Counted from the stretch's first letter, positions 34,262 through 43,581 are shown. The stretch: 64,000 nucleotides of DNA from Cyanidioschyzon merolae (GCA_000091205.1 AP006494.2), one strand, 5' to 3'. Translations and numbers: made by a program. The notes: generated by a model from the letters alone, not told the origin.

Positions 34262-35008
34262 ATGACAGAGAAAGCGTCGAAGAGGCAGAGCATCGCCGAA
34301 GCGCTGTTCGAACGGCGCCCGAAAAACTTTGGGATTGGTCAGAGTATCCAACCAAAGCGCGATCTTTCACGTTTTGTGCGCTGGCCGCGTTATGTTCGCC
34401 TCCAGCGACAGCGGAAAATCCTTCTTCAGAGGCTGAAGGTACCGCCGGCGATTGCCCAGTTCCAGAAAACTGCGGACAAGAACTTGACGGACTCGCTGTT
34501 CCGTCTACTAGAACGTTACCGGCCTGAGGAGAAAGTCGCCAAGCGACAACGCTTACAACAAGCCGCGGAGCGTGGTGAGACGAAACCTGACACCCCCAAG
34601 CCTATTTTCGTGAAGCACGGCGTCAACCATGTAACCGACTTGATCGAACAGAAAAAAGCCAAGCTCGTGATCATCGCGCACGACGTCGATCCAATCGAAT
34701 TGGTCATGTGGATGCCAGCACTCTGCCGCAAACTCGACATCCCCTACGTCATCGTGAAGGGCAAGGCGCGTCTGGGCGCACTGGTGCACTTGAAAACGGC
34801 GACGTGTCTGGCCGTCACCGGTGTCCACGACAGAGACCGCGCGGAGCTCTCGAAAATCATCGAAGTGTGCAAAATGCGCTTTAATGACCGATACGAAGAG
34901 ATTCGAAGGCAATGGGGTGGTGGTGTGCTCGGAATCAAAAGTACCCACAAGTTAGAGAAACGACGGCGGGCGCTAGCCATCGAGGAAGCGAAACGCGCCC
35001 AGGCGTGA
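34262..35008 (+). CDS. RPL7A: 60S ribosomal protein L7a (eL8)
   Basis: ATG at 34262, TGA at 35006. ERRPKNFGIGQSIQPKRDLSRFVRWPRYVRLQRQRKILLQRLKVPPAIAQF...KLVIIAHDVDPIELVMWMPALCRKLDIPYVIVKGKARLGALVH...NDRYEEIRRQWGGGVLG is collinear with eL8 over the full length. Confidence 0.93.
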   Translation: MTEKASKRQSIAEALFERRPKNFGIGQSIQPKRDLSRFVRWPRYVRLQRQRKILLQRLKVPPAIAQFQKTADKNLTDSLFRLLERYRPEEKVAKRQRLQQAAERGETKPDTPKPIFVKHGVNHVTDLIEQKKAKLVIIAHDVDPIELVMWMPALCRKLDIPYVIVKGKARLGALVHLKTATCLAVTGVHDRDRAELSKIIEVCKMRFNDRYEEIRRQWGGGVLGIKSTHKLEKRRRALAIEEAKRAQA

Positions 35009-35012
35009 ACGC

Positions 35013-38000
35013 TTAGGAGGTCAGCGTTCCCGCGTGAACTCGATCGAAAAAGGATCCCAGATCCTCTGCCTGAATGCCGTCCGCATACAACACCAAATCC
35101 ATGGTTAGTGAAGATGCTATCGACGCTGGTGCGTGCGACTCTATGCGCATATAAACACCATCCAGTGTAAGGAGGAGGGGGCTAGGCGCATTAGCGGGAC
35201 GCATGATGCCGACAGCGTAAAGCGTTTCTGTGAAAGGTTCTAAAGCCCGCAAAAGATCCATGAAAGCTGCCACATCGATTGGCATTGTTCGCTGGAGGTG
35301 GAGGCGGCGGAATAGCCTGCCTCTGTTCGCAGCCGCTGGACGGTGTGCATCGCCAGCAGGTGCAGCGTCCTGCATCGCCTGTGCGGTGAGGCGCGGCAGT
35401 ACACGCGAATCGGCATCATGAGTGGGAGCTGTTGTTGTTGTTGTTGTCGTCGTCGTCGTCGCTTCTGCTTCACGCAGCCAAGGTCGATTGCGCCTGCGTA
35501 CCCAGATTGCTGCAGGCTGCAGCCGGCCGTAGGGTGCACATATCACCCTGGCGTGCGGATTCCATCCACAGACGTGTTCCAGGATTTGCTGCAAACGCTC
35601 CGCAGGTACAACGTCCGACTTGGTAAATACGACTGTGTCCGCACTGGCGACAAGCTGCTGCTGGATATGGTCTTGCGACCGGAAACGGAGGCAATCCACC
35701 GCACACACAACAGCATCGACGCCGTCAAGCGGCTCGTCCGTCTCTAGGGCTAAGCGGAACGGACGCGGGTGCGATTCGAGACGGCTAGCGAGCGCTGCCT
35801 CGCTGACAGCTTCCAGCCGCTGGCGTTGCAGCAGAGTGCTCGGGCCTGGTGGCTCAAGTCGCCACGCCAGCAGGTCCTCGTGGGCGTTCAGCGCTCCAAC
35901 CAGCGAGGTTTTGCCCGCCCCTGGCAAGCCGCAGACTGCCAGAATACCCTCATTCGCGGGTAGTGGTTCAACATCTCCCGGAACAAGTATACGCTCGTTC
36001 TGTTCGCTGTTTGCTTCTGAACGCTTTGCTTCACCCGTGATGAGTATCCACGGCGGTGCGACTCGCGATGAAAGGCGCTCGACAAAAGAGGGCGGTTGAG
36101 CGGCTGGCGGGGTCTTTCCGCCGGCCCGTGTGCTGTCCGTGTTCGGTACTAGCGACTCGAAGGGGTCTTCAAACTCGCTCCAGGCTTCCGTAAAGACGAG
36201 CTCTTCGTCGCGTAGGAGACATTCATCCAACACTATCTGAATCCGCATCGCATCCAGATCTTCCCCGAGAAACACGATTTCACTGCAGCGATCGCCAAAG
36301 CGCTCATCCCATTGCAGCGGTCGCATTCTATCTTGCGAGTTCGGGGCGCTTGGCCACTGTTCCAGCGGTAGGGTAACGAGAAATCTTTGCCCACGTTTCA
36401 GGGTTATATTGTTTCCGACCTGGCTCCATTCGAGAAAACTGTCCATCCGATTTGCTAACCATAGTTTTCCGACAGAGCGCAAGACACCGTGGAAGGTGCT
36501 AATGTCACTGATCTTGTCAAATAGGCGACGCGGATGAAAAGGACGGTTCGCTCTGTAAAGAAAACTCGTCTCGGGTCGCACGGTTTCCGTGCTGAAGCCT
36601 CGCTCCCATGGTCGCGTTCCACTGTACAGCGTCGCGAGGAATTGCTCGTTGCTGAACCGCGAGTCCCAAATAGGTCGCGCGGTACCTGCTGCTGACGACA
36701 CCGCAGGAGCAGCGGGGTGCGTGGCACTGCCTCCGGTCGCTGCTCCGGGGCCCTTGGGTGCCGCTGCCTTTCCCGGATCATAACCTGCATCGGGTGCGGA
36801 GGCAGCGCCCCAGGATGCGGTGGCAGCTGTCGTCTCCTGTGACGCTGACGCCGCTGACGTCTCGGGTACCGTCGCTCTGGTGGCTGGCGTTGCAGCCGCT
36901 GTTGACGTGCCTACAGATGGTCCAGCCTTTGCTGAACTTTTTCCCGTACTCTGTGCTCTGTTCTCTGGCAATGCGGAACCGTATTTCTGGGAAGTTTTCG
37001 TCAGTTCCGTCGCAGCGAAAGAAGCAAGAACCCGGCGCCAGGTCGGCATCCAGAGCATCCGCTCCGGATCAAACGGTCGCTCGAGAATGCGCTCCAGGAG
37101 TGTTTGTGGCCATTCAGTATTCGCGTGCATGAGAATCACCTGAGCCTCGCAGTTCAAGAGTCGAAGATAACGAAGTAGGTTCTGGAAAGAGGGCGTCGGG
37201 GCTGTACGGACCTCGGGATCAGGACTTGCGTCCTGCGACTTGCGCATCGGCCGCACGTCCGCATCTGTCTCCCGACCAGGCATTTGTTGTTGGTTGTACA
37301 CGACGACAAGGTTCGCATACTCTATTTGATCCACCAGGAGCTGCACCAAATTATCAGCCTGTGCGTTACTTGCTGATCCCCGTTCCCGCTCCATAGCGGG
37401 TGGCCGTCGTGCTGACGCTCCATCGTTGTCGCCTGCACCTACATCTCCAGCTTCCACGCGCGATGCAGTTTTCTTCTCGTGCAGCAGCGTACCTCGGGAT
37501 GGACTTGAGCCGTCCCGCGAAGTCTCCACGGTATCGCTCGTCGCGAGCGCTTGGTCAGCGTCGTTGTGGCTGATTTCCAGTCCAGTCCCGCCAGTTATAC
37601 CCGTCGCTGTCGTTGGGATGCGTTCCGAAGCCGGCGACGTCTGCGCTGTATTCTCAGGGCTATACGCGACAGACGCCGTTTCTTGTTGTCGCAGCGTCGG
37701 TGCGAATACCTCCGCAGCCGCCGCTGCATCGATGACGCTCACGAGCGCAAGAAGCTGCAGCGGCCACTCAACATGCGCAAGACTGTCGGCGATGGCATAT
37801 GGCTCCTCTTTTTCAGGGCTGCAGACGATGAGGTAGTCCACACCGTACGCTGCCTGGACCTGAAACAGATTCACAGGGCTGGGTGCAGCTTCCACTGTTT
37901 GATCCGCAGCGCTCTGTACCGCGGACCCGCTTTGCGCCTGACTAGCTCTTGGCGTGCGAGCTCGTCGTCTCATCAACTGGTCAATTTTGGGTCCGAGCTC

Positions 38001-38930
38001 ATCCTGGTTCACACAGTTGTCGAGAACTTCAAAGTAGATATGGGTACCGATTAACGCGGAGCACAACGATGAAGGCAGAGATTCCGTGCACAGCGATGCA
38101 TTAACCAGCCAGCCAGCTTCATCCTCATCCCAGACGAGTCCCAGCCGAGTTGCGAGTGTTGCCGGCAAAAGCACGCCCACGCGCGGCGGGCGCTCCTCCG
38201 GCTGCGGCGATCGTTGCAGCAACTGCTCCAGCAACGTTCCTAAAAGTCGCAAACGCGCGATATCATCTAGCCCGCTGAGCACCACGGTGGGCACCGGTGT
38301 ACTTCGCAGCGTTCTCCGCTGTGTATCACTCTCCGCGGCCTGTGTGGGCTGACTTGTCTGTTGTGGTGGCCGTTGAGCAGCGCCCATGGCAGCTGCCTCT
38401 GCGCTCGCGTCTGGCGGGTCCGAACCCCCGCCGTCTGTAACATCAGCGCTCCACTGGAATGCAGGCAAAACGACCGCGAAGATCGTGCTAGTATTCCTCT
38501 GTAGAGCAACGTGGTGCAGAGAGCGACGCAGTGAGCGCTGGTTGAAAGCTACTGGTGCCGCTGCGAAAGAAGAGCGTGTTAGTGGGCGATGCTGAATGGG
38601 CCGCACCTCCCAGGCACGCCCTCGAGCATGCCTTGGGGTAAGCGTCCTCGGAACGCGACTGCTCCACTGCAATACCGTTCTTTTCTGTACTATCCTTTCC
38701 TGTGGGAATAGATATCCCGCATAAATGACTTGCCCCTGTAAAACAGGGGCGAACATGGGCAACATCAATGTACTCTTAGGGTCCTCTTCGTTTGCTGCGA
38801 ACCGGCGAGCGCTGGTGAAGCCAACCTTCATGCGCGCTCCGCGAAGCGCACTGCCGCGCACCGGTCGACGCGATCCGATGCTTTGTGTAACCGCAGGTGC
38901 TTCGAGGTGCTTTCTTACGAGGTGCTCCAT
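35013..38930 (-). CDS. Giant tandem COG0523/CobW-like (ZNG1/CBWD-family) protein: module 1 pseudo-GTPase plus CobW_C, module 2 P-loop GTPase plus divergent CobW_C, long low-complexity linkers
   Basis: Module 1: VPTVVLSGLDDIARLRLLG (P-loop lost), DYLIVCSPEKEEPYAIADSL, LQLLALVSVIDAAAAAE, QIEYANLVVVYNQQQM (NKxD lost), LLNCEAQVI, then CobW_C GKLWLANRMDSFLEW...CSEIVFLGEDLDAMRIQIVLDECLL. Module 2: ILAVCGLPGAGKTSLVGAL, LDGVDAVVCAVDCLRF, ADTVVFTKSDVV, WNPHARVI, C-terminal LVLYADGIQAEDLGSFFDRV. Neither module has a CxCC motif. The first in-frame ATG (38930) lies inside the 127-bp repeat; the next ATG is 38831. Confidence 0.65.
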   Translation of the reverse strand: MEHLVRKHLEAPAVTQSIGSRRPVRGSALRGARMKVGFTSARRFAANEEDPKSTLMLPMFAPVLQGQVIYAGYLFPQERIVQKRTVLQWSSRVPRTLTPRHARGRAWEVRPIQHRPLTRSSFAAAPVAFNQRSLRRSLHHVALQRNTSTIFAVVLPAFQWSADVTDGGGSDPPDASAEAAAMGAAQRPPQQTSQPTQAAESDTQRRTLRSTPVPTVVLSGLDDIARLRLLGTLLEQLLQRSPQPEERPPRVGVLLPATLATRLGLVWDEDEAGWLVNASLCTESLPSSLCSALIGTHIYFEVLDNCVNQDELGPKIDQLMRRRARTPRASQAQSGSAVQSAADQTVEAAPSPVNLFQVQAAYGVDYLIVCSPEKEEPYAIADSLAHVEWPLQLLALVSVIDAAAAAEVFAPTLRQQETASVAYSPENTAQTSPASERIPTTATGITGGTGLEISHNDADQALATSDTVETSRDGSSPSRGTLLHEKKTASRVEAGDVGAGDNDGASARRPPAMERERGSASNAQADNLVQLLVDQIEYANLVVVYNQQQMPGRETDADVRPMRKSQDASPDPEVRTAPTPSFQNLLRYLRLLNCEAQVILMHANTEWPQTLLERILERPFDPERMLWMPTWRRVLASFAATELTKTSQKYGSALPENRAQSTGKSSAKAGPSVGTSTAAATPATRATVPETSAASASQETTAATASWGAASAPDAGYDPGKAAAPKGPGAATGGSATHPAAPAVSSAAGTARPIWDSRFSNEQFLATLYSGTRPWERGFSTETVRPETSFLYRANRPFHPRRLFDKISDISTFHGVLRSVGKLWLANRMDSFLEWSQVGNNITLKRGQRFLVTLPLEQWPSAPNSQDRMRPLQWDERFGDRCSEIVFLGEDLDAMRIQIVLDECLLRDEELVFTEAWSEFEDPFESLVPNTDSTRAGGKTPPAAQPPSFVERLSSRVAPPWILITGEAKRSEANSEQNERILVPGDVEPLPANEGILAVCGLPGAGKTSLVGALNAHEDLLAWRLEPPGPSTLLQRQRLEAVSEAALASRLESHPRPFRLALETDEPLDGVDAVVCAVDCLRFRSQDHIQQQLVASADTVVFTKSDVVPAERLQQILEHVCGWNPHARVICAPYGRLQPAAIWVRRRNRPWLREAEATTTTTTTTTTAPTHDADSRVLPRLTAQAMQDAAPAGDAHRPAAANRGRLFRRLHLQRTMPIDVAAFMDLLRALEPFTETLYAVGIMRPANAPSPLLLTLDGVYMRIESHAPASIASSLTMDLVLYADGIQAEDLGSFFDRVHAGTLTS

Positions 38931-41232: not shown

Positions 41233-43320
41233 CTACGCAATAGAGTTCGACTTGTAGGCTGCTCGCAACGTCTCAAAAACACGTTCCCGCAAGAGTCGCT
41301 CGGCAGGGCGGCGGATGTCGTTCGCCGCCCCGCGGTCGGGGTGTGTCAAGAGCAGCGCTCGCCGATACGCGACCTTCACTTGCTGTTCATCCAGCAAAGC
41401 CTGCACAGTGAGACGCTCCCAGCCAGAGTCCTCACCTAGAATCTCGTGCAAAGTGCTCAGAAGCGCTCGAATGTTATGTGCTCGCGATCCGTTTCGCGTC
41501 CATTCACTGATGCGTTGCTCGACGACAAAGATGACTTCTGGGGTAGCGGTGCCATCTTGCGGCTCCAAAGTTTCCCGTGTCCCAGAGGTGACCTCACGGT
41601 AACCAGTGGAGGTTTCTGTTTCGATCGTGACCGAACTACTGTCCGCCGTGTATCGTTCACGAGCTTCATGTGCAGTGGGGGTCGAGCGTATCGCATGCTT
41701 ACGCCGCTCAGCGGTTGTGCTGCTGCTGCTGCTGCTGCCTGTACTGTTGCCGTTGCTCCTGCGAGTCGCCTGGAGAAATTGTTCGGGTGTGGCAGCATTG
41801 GAAGCCCGGACACGCTGTGGATCGTCGACGACTTCATTAACCTCATCCCAGGGGCTTGCCTCCTGTGCACCGCTATCCATCGCGGTAGCAGCCGCTACTG
41901 ACACAGCGTTTGAGCTGGAGGCAGGATGCAGCGCAGGTGCTTCCGCTGGTGTTCCAGCCGGGGCGTGATGCGCCGTTGCCTGAGCAGGGGCGCTTTGTGA
42001 CACGTCTTCAGACTCTTCCTCAATATCCACAAGCTGATCTTCGAGTGGTCCCTTGGGAGCGTTAGGCCTTGCTGTGCACGTCTGATCCTCTGCGCAATGG
42101 CCAGCAGGCCAAGTCGATGTCGACGGCGGCGACGATAATGACCCTGCCCGGGCGTTTCCTCGAGAGCTCACGACGTCAGCCACTGGTGCGGCGGCTGTGC
42201 TTGCTCCAGCGTCCGTCATTACGGCCAGTCCTCGTTCAAAAGCAGTATCCAAGGAACTTGCATCCAATTCGGATGCGCCAGTTGTCGGCGTAGGGCGCCA
42301 TTTCTCGTGTAATGTTTGCCATAACGTTTCCGGCTTGGTCGCCGTGGATCGTTCCATCTGCTTCCGAGTCGAAAGGCGCTGCAGAGCAGACCGACCGAGA
42401 GCGGCCTCATTGGATGGAGCGCCCCCGTCAGCTCCAGTCCCAGCTCCAGTTCCAGCACCAGCGGGATTCCCGCACGAATCAAGCCTCCTGTTCGGCCTGT
42501 TCCGCGTCGCAGCCTTCTTCGAAGAATCATCGCCATGAAGGCGGTGCTGCTCCGTCACCACAAAAGAGGCCGCTGCATAAAATTGTCGTTGAATTTCGAG
42601 CAGCTCTGTGAGGCAACTCGGTAGTAGCTCCGAGCGGGCCAGAATCCACGCTTCGAGGTGCACACAGGTTTCCTCGCACTTGCCCAAGAGAGGTCCCATC
42701 ACACTATTATAGACTTCTTCCACAGAACCAACGTACCCATATGCACCACTCTGCATACTTAGCTGCCGCAAACTTGCCTGTGCTTGTTGAATCTCTTCGA
42801 CCAAGCCAAGGACGCCCTCGAGGAGCGCCTGACCTTCATTGAGTGCCATCGCTAGCGGCTGCTGAACCCGCAGCCGGAGACGTTTCTCAGTCACGCGCAG
42901 CACTCGTTCTTCAAGGTCCAGCTGACACTCGTTCCATTGCGCCCAGAGCGCCCGTCGTGTAGCGTCCGGTTCCATGTTCGATGCGCTGGTACCGGGCTCT
43001 GTGACAAACGGCGATGAGGGTACTGCGTCGCGCCAGTTTGCCATAAACTCCTGCATGCTCCTCAAAATACGCTCTATCGACGTTTCGAATCCAACCCAAT
43101 CATGCAACATCTGGTATAGCGTGGCTCCAGCAAAGCTAAGTCGCTGAAAGCGCTCACCGAATGTAGCTAGCCGTTGCCCGACGTGCTCCCACCGGCTCAG
43201 TACGTTCCGAACGTTCACCGGGCCGGTGCTATTCGCTTTGGCCTCAGAAACACTCCATTGTGCTGCACGCTTCGCCTCCTGCCCCAGTTCCCGCAGTCTA
43301 TTCCGCCAGGAGCGGAACAT
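41233..43320 (-). CDS. Auxilin-like J-domain protein (C-terminal J domain)
   Basis: ORF 41233..43401 (TTG at 43401; first ATG 43320). C-terminus NIRALLSTLHEILGEDSGWERLTVQALLDEQQVKVAYRRALLLTHPDRG matches the auxilin/GAK J-domain (NIRALLSTMH...QVKKVYRKAVLVVHPDK). Upstream region is low-complexity with (GCT)n-encoded poly-Ala. Confidence 0.75.
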   Translation of the reverse strand: MFRSWRNRLRELGQEAKRAAQWSVSEAKANSTGPVNVRNVLSRWEHVGQRLATFGERFQRLSFAGATLYQMLHDWVGFETSIERILRSMQEFMANWRDAVPSSPFVTEPGTSASNMEPDATRRALWAQWNECQLDLEERVLRVTEKRLRLRVQQPLAMALNEGQALLEGVLGLVEEIQQAQASLRQLSMQSGAYGYVGSVEEVYNSVMGPLLGKCEETCVHLEAWILARSELLPSCLTELLEIQRQFYAAASFVVTEQHRLHGDDSSKKAATRNRPNRRLDSCGNPAGAGTGAGTGADGGAPSNEAALGRSALQRLSTRKQMERSTATKPETLWQTLHEKWRPTPTTGASELDASSLDTAFERGLAVMTDAGASTAAAPVADVVSSRGNARAGSLSSPPSTSTWPAGHCAEDQTCTARPNAPKGPLEDQLVDIEEESEDVSQSAPAQATAHHAPAGTPAEAPALHPASSSNAVSVAAATAMDSGAQEASPWDEVNEVVDDPQRVRASNAATPEQFLQATRRSNGNSTGSSSSSSTTAERRKHAIRSTPTAHEARERYTADSSSVTIETETSTGYREVTSGTRETLEPQDGTATPEVIFVVEQRISEWTRNGSRAHNIRALLSTLHEILGEDSGWERLTVQALLDEQQVKVAYRRALLLTHPDRGAANDIRRPAERLLRERVFETLRAAYKSNSIA

Positions 43321-43581
43321 GACCGCGTCACCAACCCAGTCTGAGAACTGAGCGCTCTCGAGAAAAAGTCGCGTAGCGCCGCGCCGAGGGCGCTGGTGCA
43401 AGGCGCGCTTCGTTCTCGGACTGGGTAGGCACAGGTGCGGTGTTCCCTAGACGCGTTGCCAGGTTAGAGAGCGTTTGACCTTTCGATCTGTGAACGTTCA
43501 GAGTATTCGTGTTTCTGCAACGTCCTGGTTGTGTATCAAGAGAGCATTAAGTTCGACGGTTTTCTTTCCGAGGGCTTGTGA

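Follow-up and report, generated by a model that had tools for sequence, protein, structure and literature searches.

A single open reading frame (ORF) on the minus strand of a 64,000-nucleotide stretch of nuclear DNA from the red alga Cyanidioschyzon merolae 10D (hereafter the window; the frame occupies positions 35013..38930) encodes a protein in which two units derived from the COG0523 family follow one another in one chain. The frame runs without interruption for 1,305 codons plus a stop codon, and its 1,305-residue product is 100% identical to the C. merolae 10D protein BAM80887.1 / XP_005536923.1 / UniProt M1VDL9, which carries the database label “hypothetical protein, conserved” or “CobW C-terminal domain-containing protein” and nothing more. 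An original prediction made from the DNA sequence had proposed two collinear COG0523-derived units in a protein of about 1300 residues, and profile tests now place four collinear domains along the chain. Neither a frameshift nor a lone module was found, as the frame is unbroken and profile searches place the G domains of both units. Judged from its motifs, the first unit is a pseudo-GTPase, and the tandem layout is that of a conserved red-algal family extending beyond C. merolae. We regard the protein, with a fair measure of reserve, as probably the Cyanidioschyzon-clade form of this two-unit family, acting as an adaptor or regulator of its former client and not as a metal inserter.

Domains and motifs of the two units

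The G3E-like domain of unit 1 spans residues 207-645 (36996..38312, minus strand, as for all features of the protein given below). Three low-complexity inserts (residues 326-355, 413-520 and 549-582) leave the native region (residues ~207-645) too broken for detection by Pfam. With the inserts excised, it matched Pfam cobW at E 0.0015 (18.6 bits against a cut-off of 20.7; profile positions 64-178) and the NCBIfam ZigA model at E 1.7e-5 (model positions 160-241). Comparison by hhalign of eight red-algal unit 1 G regions with 28 canonical single-unit COG0523 proteins gave a match of 99.7% probability (E 1e-25) over canonical columns 13-254, starting at the P-loop strand and reaching the G domain's end, and the four Cyanidioschyzon-type G regions taken alone matched canonical COG0523 at 98.6% (E 1e-15). 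In addition, a HMMER profile of six unit 1 G regions retrieved bacterial ZigA proteins from a 5.8-billion-protein database at E 1e-24 to 1e-17. The presence of a G-like domain upstream of the unit 1 CobW_C domain is settled by the profile-profile comparison, and the AlphaFold2 model places blocks with a predicted local distance difference test score (pLDDT) of 65-85 in the same region.

The nucleotide-binding motifs of this domain are degenerate. At the position of the GxxGxGK[ST] P-loop, the sequence reads GLDDIARL (residues 220-227, 38250..38273), with the glycines lost and swapped for acidic residues and the lysine replaced by arginine. The Walker B/switch II segment DYLIVCSPEKEEP (residues 365-377, 37800..37838) has lost its glycine and carries cysteine for glutamate, so that the unit 1 counterpart of hhhhE[ST]xG reads LIVCSPE, and a single cysteine is left in the (G)CxCC remnant NCVNQ (residues 305-309, 38004..38018). 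The hhalign register and inspection of the motif place YNQQ (residues 545-548, 37287..37298) at the NKxD position; the loss of NKxD had been foreseen, and the residues named for it, VYNQ, were off by one. The pairings with YjiA that had been drawn from the sequence fall in the same register by hhalign, with VVLSGLDDIARLRLL at the P-loop strand and DYLIVCSPEKEEP at Walker B, and with LALVSVIDA, QIEYANLVVV and LLNCEAQVI likewise in register. On these motifs, unit 1 is a pseudo-GTPase that keeps the fold, has lost the P-loop, the Walker B Glu and Gly and NKxD, and retains one of the three CxCC cysteines. The unit 1 nucleotide motifs are missing in all 8-10 family members examined, in which the fold signal is retained, the exception to the family-wide loss being a residual NRVD at the NKxD position of Galdieria unit 1.

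The degenerate G domain is followed by linker 1 (residues 646-785, 36576..36995; 68% Ala/Ser/Thr/Gly/Pro and predicted to be disordered) and then by a CobW_C domain of the long ZigA type with an ...EDPF C-terminal tail (residues 786-930, 36141..36575). Pfam CobW_C (PF07683) matched the whole protein at residues 789-905 with E 4.5e-15, clearing its cut-off, in keeping with the well-kept CobW_C predicted for this pseudo-GTPase unit, and hhalign against canonical COG0523 gave E 2e-46. The NCBIfam ZigA model (NF038288) matched the native protein in three collinear stretches (E 1e-36) and was the best-matching named family, at 126 bits against an equivalog cut-off of 600; the protein is no equivalog of ZigA. 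This CobW_C domain is the best conserved segment of the protein, sharing 85-87% of its residues with Cyanidiococcus-type orthologues and 46-55% with those of mesophilic red algae. Linker 2 (residues 931-985, 35976..36140), delimited by the AlphaFold2 model and the identity comparison, separates the two units. The Ala/Ser/Thr/Pro-rich linkers described in the original prediction are borne out by composition, with 47-68% Ala/Ser/Thr/Pro/Gly.

The G domain of unit 2 (residues 986-1145, 35496..35975) is shortened and in part intact. Pfam cobW on the whole protein recovered only the C-terminal half of this domain (residues 1070-1130, E 1.7e-6), so that the native Pfam matches, taken at face value, place CobW_C ahead of the G domain, opposite to the canonical order; a further Pfam cobW scan matched in two stretches at E 1.2e-7, and hhalign of the Cyanidioschyzon-type sequences against canonical COG0523 gave 99.3% (E 3e-20). 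The Walker A motif GLPGAGKT (residues 1001-1008, 35907..35930) is intact, and G1001, G1004, G1006 and K1007 are invariant in eight orthologues; the NKxD-type motif TKSD (residues 1103-1106, 35613..35624) is intact as well, K1104 and D1106 being invariant. Between them, a short segment (residues 1018-1044, 35799..35879) stands in the place of switch I (NEFGE) and GCICC, where roughly 30-45 residues are deleted relative to canonical orthologues and both switch I and CxCC are gone with them. The orthologue alignment thus gives unit 2 the motif state that had been read from the sequence. A Walker B remnant, RLALETDEP (residues 1059-1067, 35730..35756, by hhalign register), keeps the glutamate and lacks the glycine. 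In all, the chain carries 12 cysteines, and CxCC occurs nowhere in it.

Linker 3 (residues 1146-1205, 35316..35495), with a run of ten threonines, occupies the place of the His-rich stretch of the orthologues and leads to the C-terminal domain of unit 2 (residues 1206-1298, 35037..35315), which is CobW_C-like by position and predicted fold only. All tails of the family align with each other free of gaps, and the tail of one metagenomic relative (P0003), taken alone, passed the Pfam CobW_C cut-off (24.1 bits, E 3.4e-5). Modelled alone from seven sequences, the tail reached pLDDT 72 with a strand-helix-four strands-helix order, and in Foldseek three YjiA entries ranked first (TM 0.59), at E 0.03-0.09, below significance. 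From the fold, the P0003 tail and the gap-free alignment we take a diverged CobW_C domain to be very probable here, although no sequence method shows one in this tail.

The AlphaFold2 model of residues 200-1305, built from ten family sequences, had a mean pLDDT of 58.7 and a predicted template modelling score (pTM) of 0.46. Its folded blocks, at pLDDT 65-87, coincide with the four domains, and 443 residues below 50 lie in the inserts and linkers. Foldseek of this model against the PDB returned YjiA first, followed by Shulin, HypB and UreG; among PDB sequences, phmmer found a marginal YjiA match only (E 2.3). Shulin (6zyx_Y), among the top Foldseek matches, is a dynein-arm packaging factor, and Pfam DAAF9_2 weakly matched residues 700-886 of a 1,055-residue tandem orthologue (P0008), in its canonical unit 2 G domain. 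These two matches hint at a COG0523-like G domain in a ciliary protein family.

Upstream of unit 1, a putative organelle presequence (residues 56-150, 38481..38765) is indicated by composition and by the starts of the orthologues. Cyanidiococcus-type orthologues begin at the alignment column of C. merolae Met56 (MLPMFAPV in C. merolae; MISSFIPV and MIPTFIPA in the orthologues), and P0008 begins with MTTFIPP, making a translation start at Met56 possible. The 95 residues from Met56 contain 15 Lys+Arg against 2 Asp+Glu, with Phe at position 5, and an early N-terminal Phe is a hallmark of glaucophyte and red-algal plastid transit peptides (PMC2222254). Plastid import is therefore possible, given this basic, acid-poor N-terminus and the early Phe.

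The red-algal tandem family

Relatives were collected with an exhaustive phmmer scan of residues 200-1305 against 1.84 billion representative proteins, and the best 150 of 1,621 matches were considered. They include a full-length relative of 1,230 residues at 51% identity (P0002) and P0003, of 955 residues, at 41%. Look-up of the sequence clusters assigned orthologues to Cyanidiococcus yangmingshanensis (1,206 residues), Galdieria sulphuraria (1,051 and 1,105 residues), Compsopogon caeruleus (1,049 residues) and Porphyridium purpureum (1,199 residues), in addition to P0008. All four domains are collinear in the alignment of full-length orthologues; the tandem layout in related algae that was to be looked for is thus present, and, far from being an oddity of C. 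merolae, it is common to Cyanidiococcus, Galdieria, Compsopogon and Porphyridium. Within the best 150 of the 1,621 matches, the layout occurs in red algae only, and none of the 11 other long matches (at least 527 residues; 10 assessed by Pfam, 1 by reading of the sequence) is a tandem protein. A word-indexed homologue search with the whole protein returned only the protein itself, its candidate list having probably been filled by low-complexity words.

The state of unit 2 divides the family. In P0008 and in Galdieria, Compsopogon and Porphyridium, the second unit is a complete canonical chaperone with GFLGSGKTTLLN, NEFGE, NGCICC, ETTGVADP and SKTD, as well as a long His-rich stretch and a short, Pfam-positive CobW_C, and Pfam on these orthologues gave full cobW matches at E 1e-52 to 1e-61 with two CobW_C stretches. 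C. merolae, Cyanidiococcus and P0003 have lost switch I, CxCC and the His-rich loop and retain Walker A and [TSA]K[ST]D. Since unit 2 is canonical in the other family members, these losses are derived in the clade of C. merolae, Cyanidiococcus and P0003. Between C. merolae and Cyanidiococcus-type sequences, the folded segments of unit 1's dead G domain are 47-79% identical, and for the G domain and tail of unit 2 the figure is about 50%; over all folded domains identity is 47-87%, against 10-39% in the inserts and linkers. As the domains are far more conserved than the linkers, all four appear to be constrained and the protein is not decaying.

The two units look, by sequence, like different COG0523 subtypes, unit 1 being ZigA/Mrf-like and unit 2 having a YjiA-like CobW_C. 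Compsopogon unit 1 matched positions 76-390 of ZigA and 80-393 of the Mrf model in a single stretch and bears a long CobW_C with the ...EDPF tail, while its unit 2 has the short YjiA-like form. The G regions of unit 1 are also nearer to ZigA-like proteins (E 1e-27) than to unit 2 (E 3e-10), and BLASTP of C. merolae unit 1 against unit 2 found no significant similarity. The differing subtypes and the lack of BLASTP similarity point to a fusion of paralogues or a very old duplication; a recent internal duplication was considered and dropped on the same BLASTP result.

Several records touch on the history of the family. An older annotation divides the Cyanidiococcus yangmingshanensis orthologue into three gene models of 598, 110 and 373 residues (KAF6001363-65), and a newer one gives a single protein of 1,206 residues (KAK4533358, P0155); the three-way split probably reflects a mistake of assembly or annotation in the older of the two. 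Porphyridium purpureum has, besides its tandem gene (KAA8498306, P0013, 1,199 residues), a paralogue of 764 residues with unit 1 only, that is, a dead G domain and CobW_C (KAA8498307, P0010), under an adjoining accession on the shared scaffold, which is suggestive of local duplication or offers a clue to the origin of the fusion. The one-carbon metabolism section of an eLife 2019 article (PMC6629376) refers to a “CobW orthologue of the Cyanidioschyzon lineage”, which may be the M1VDL9 gene. If the two genes are the same, the transfer call in that section could be an artefact, arising because the gene has diverged from its Galdieria and mesophilic orthologues.

Function and competing explanations

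In the mechanism that we propose, unit 1 would be unable to bind nucleotide and would serve as a built-in docking or adaptor module acting through its CobW_C domain, a domain regarded as a candidate client- or protein-interaction domain of the COG0523 family (PMC11672702). The ancestral protein would have docked through unit 1 and used unit 2 to deliver a metal, probably Zn. In C. merolae, unit 2 would still bind GTP, with hydrolysis probably inefficient or absent, and would no longer hold metal at the canonical site, leaving the protein to act on its former client as an adaptor or regulator, whether constitutively or in dependence on nucleotide. Little or no hydrolysis is expected because switch I and the metal site are gone while Walker A and NKxD are invariant, and a docking or adaptor derivative is probable, in place of a metal inserter, because CxCC is missing from both units. 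The motif states argue against canonical GTP-coupled metal transfer, and the suggestion that the C. merolae protein is itself a metallochaperone is doubtful; with the family-defining CxCC found in neither unit, we do not class it as one despite its COG0523 descent.

Several points weigh against this reading. The last ~100 residues, the tail of unit 2, gave nothing significant against CobW_C by Pfam, NCBIfam, hmmsearch or hhalign, and three of the seven rows in the alignment used to model the tail are genuine CobW_C domains, a possible bias that makes the model dependent on the hypothesis. The divergent CobW_C predicted at the end of module 2 accordingly stands by position and predicted fold and fails by sequence methods. 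The case for plastid targeting has composition and the Phe motif as its sole basis. A non-canonical metal site may exist in the protein, though the cysteines are only the 12 already counted and form no conserved Cys/His cluster, and the loss of switch I could have abolished all nucleotide binding in unit 2.

An alternative in which the dead G domain of unit 1 packs on the G domain of unit 2 in the way that HypB or UreG protomers pack, as an internal mimic of a heterodimer that regulates the nucleotide or metal cycle, is unlikely in our estimation, though plausible for the family. The G3E relatives HypB, UreG and MeaB work as nucleotide-dependent dimers; the fold matches include HypB, UreG, the SRP54/FtsY heterodimers and Der, with its two G domains; the fusion of a dead with a live unit has been kept across the red algae; and pseudo-GTPase partners of active GTPases are reported for septins and p190RhoGAP. 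Against such packing, a 2024 review holds that COG0523 proteins may be monomers and that the C-terminal domain of YjiA seems to block a dimer of the HypB/UreG type (PMC11672702). The G domains lie about 340 residues apart, with a full CobW_C and a pair of disordered linkers in between, the pTM of the model is only 0.46, and in C. merolae no CxCC site remains to be regulated. A stronger form, in which the whole red-algal family is a covalent pseudo-GTPase:GTPase pair of COG0523 units working as an obligate intramolecular heterodimer, and in which the Cyanidioschyzon clade, once all canonical metal ligands were lost, repurposed it to regulate a plastid client by binding GTP independently of metal, that client being possibly the ribosome, as for Mrf, is a speculation to which we give distinctly little weight. 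If true, the obligate heterodimer would be the first indication that COG0523 chaperones work in pairs like HypB and UreG.

It is improbable that the protein is an Mrf-like ribosome factor, with unit 1 as a tether to (plastid) ribosomes and unit 2 acting on nascent or ribosomal proteins. Single-unit bacterial relatives without a P-loop are among the matches, Mrf itself binds the 30S subunit (PMC7431043, PMC11672702), and the ‘hiber_recruit’ (MRF) model, against which unit 1 scores nearly as high as against ZigA, matched the C. merolae protein at E 4e-27 and Compsopogon unit 1 at E 3e-33. These matches (NCBIfam NF047431) reach, however, 95 bits in C. merolae and 115 bits in unit 1 of Compsopogon against an equivalog cut-off of 375, no better than ZigA, and the scores reflect a common type of CobW_C and not orthology. 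The absence of the family metal site from both units, the lack of switch I and the His-rich loop in unit 2, and the long low-complexity inserts would also be expected of an evolutionary relic, a functionless C. merolae remnant left after CxCC loss and heading to a pseudogene. We hold this to be very improbable, as the 1,305-codon frame is intact, the identical degenerate state recurs in at least three more lineages (P0002, P0155 and P0003), and the contrast in identity between folded domains and linkers stands beside an invariant Walker A and NKxD. Scarcely any weight is given to an annotation artefact, with two adjacent genes or a frameshifted assembly read as a single ORF. The three gene models of the older Cyanidiococcus annotation would fit it, but eight sequences of independent origin, this one included, have an unbroken frame; among them are the newer Cyanidiococcus model and the Compsopogon entry, which has no recorded genomic contig and is probably derived from a transcriptome.

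Locus context and comparison with known systems

The genes neighbouring the tandem gene encode a DP-type transcription factor, ribosomal protein L7a, a RING protein, a helicase with a PHD finger, Rad21, a class-III aminotransferase, an Ulp1 protease and a tocopherol cyclase. Because these are ordinary, unrelated eukaryotic genes, the gene context is uninformative on function. The L7a gene (34262..35008, plus strand) converges on the tandem gene with 4 base pairs between the two stop codons, so the 3' untranslated regions of the two genes must overlap. Upstream of the locus, at 41233-43401 (minus strand), lies an ORF of 722 residues with no Pfam match at E <= 1e-5, and scans of the window for transfer RNA genes and Rfam families found no feature.

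COG0523 proteins are the least understood of the nucleotide-dependent metallochaperones, and their clients, the role of CobW_C and the question of pairing are unsettled (PMC11672702). A dead-live fusion kept throughout a lineage implies that two COG0523 units serve one process and offers a defined system for asking how. The Cyanidioschyzon clade is in turn a natural experiment, a scaffold under selection without its metal site, that could separate scaffold or adaptor roles from metal transfer, and the database label “Putative metal chaperone YciC” is unjustified for members that lack CxCC. C. merolae can be modified by homologous recombination, so that localisation, knockout and domain-swap work is feasible. 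The genetic tractability of the alga is stated in the literature (PMC13353863).

The open-access full-text literature yielded nothing on the M1VDL9 protein or on a tandem COG0523 architecture, in agreement with the earlier remark that the layout is undescribed. The sequences as such are deposited in public databases, where they carry generic names. Six bacterial single-unit relatives (P0032, P0058, P0061, P0120, P0134 and P0149) lack the P-loop and have CxxC in place of CxCC, and loss of G motifs seems recurrent in the family. With these relatives and the adaptor-type Mrf in view, a dead COG0523 unit taken singly is nothing new; no description was found in that literature of the conserved tandem, in which a dead unit is joined to a live one, or of its doubly degenerate Cyanidioschyzon form. 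To our knowledge, no G3E pseudo-GTPase in tandem with an active paralogue has been described.

One close comparison is with single-unit COG0523 proteins (E. coli YjiA, A. baumannii ZigA, CobW, ZNG1 and the plant and green-algal ZNG2/ZCP), in which, as in both units here, a G3E P-loop fold is followed by CobW_C, and all motifs of that family are held by unit 2 of the orthologues outside the Cyanidioschyzon clade. Unlike them, the red-algal protein has two units per chain, the first without G1, G3 and G4, and the C. merolae protein has CxCC in neither unit and no switch I in unit 2, and adds long disordered inserts and linkers and an N-terminal extension of ~150-200 residues. Mrf of mycobacteria (the recruitment factor for Mpy) shares COG0523 descent, the long ZigA-type CobW_C and the recruiting or adaptor role proposed here, whereas Mrf and the P-loop-less bacterial relatives are stand-alone single units, usually with CxxC. 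HypB, UreG, MeaB and the SIMIBI pair SRP54-FtsY belong to the same P-loop class and control metal or cofactor delivery by nucleotide through facing G domains, a possible model for the pair of units, although they are separate chains whose partners usually both bind nucleotide. Chlamydomonas CBP1 (CobW, CobW_C and WW) and ZNG3 are likewise lineage-specific algal elaborations of COG0523 through an added interaction module with a regulatory role (PMC12891040), but CBP1 is a nuclear protein of the green lineage with a single motif-complete CobW unit and a WW domain. Finally, the pseudoGTPases of p190RhoGAP, septin and AAGAB also use a GTPase fold without nucleotide motifs in protein-protein interaction, those of p190RhoGAP and septin coming from unrelated GTPase classes (Ras-like and septin), in contrast to the G3E fold of unit 1.

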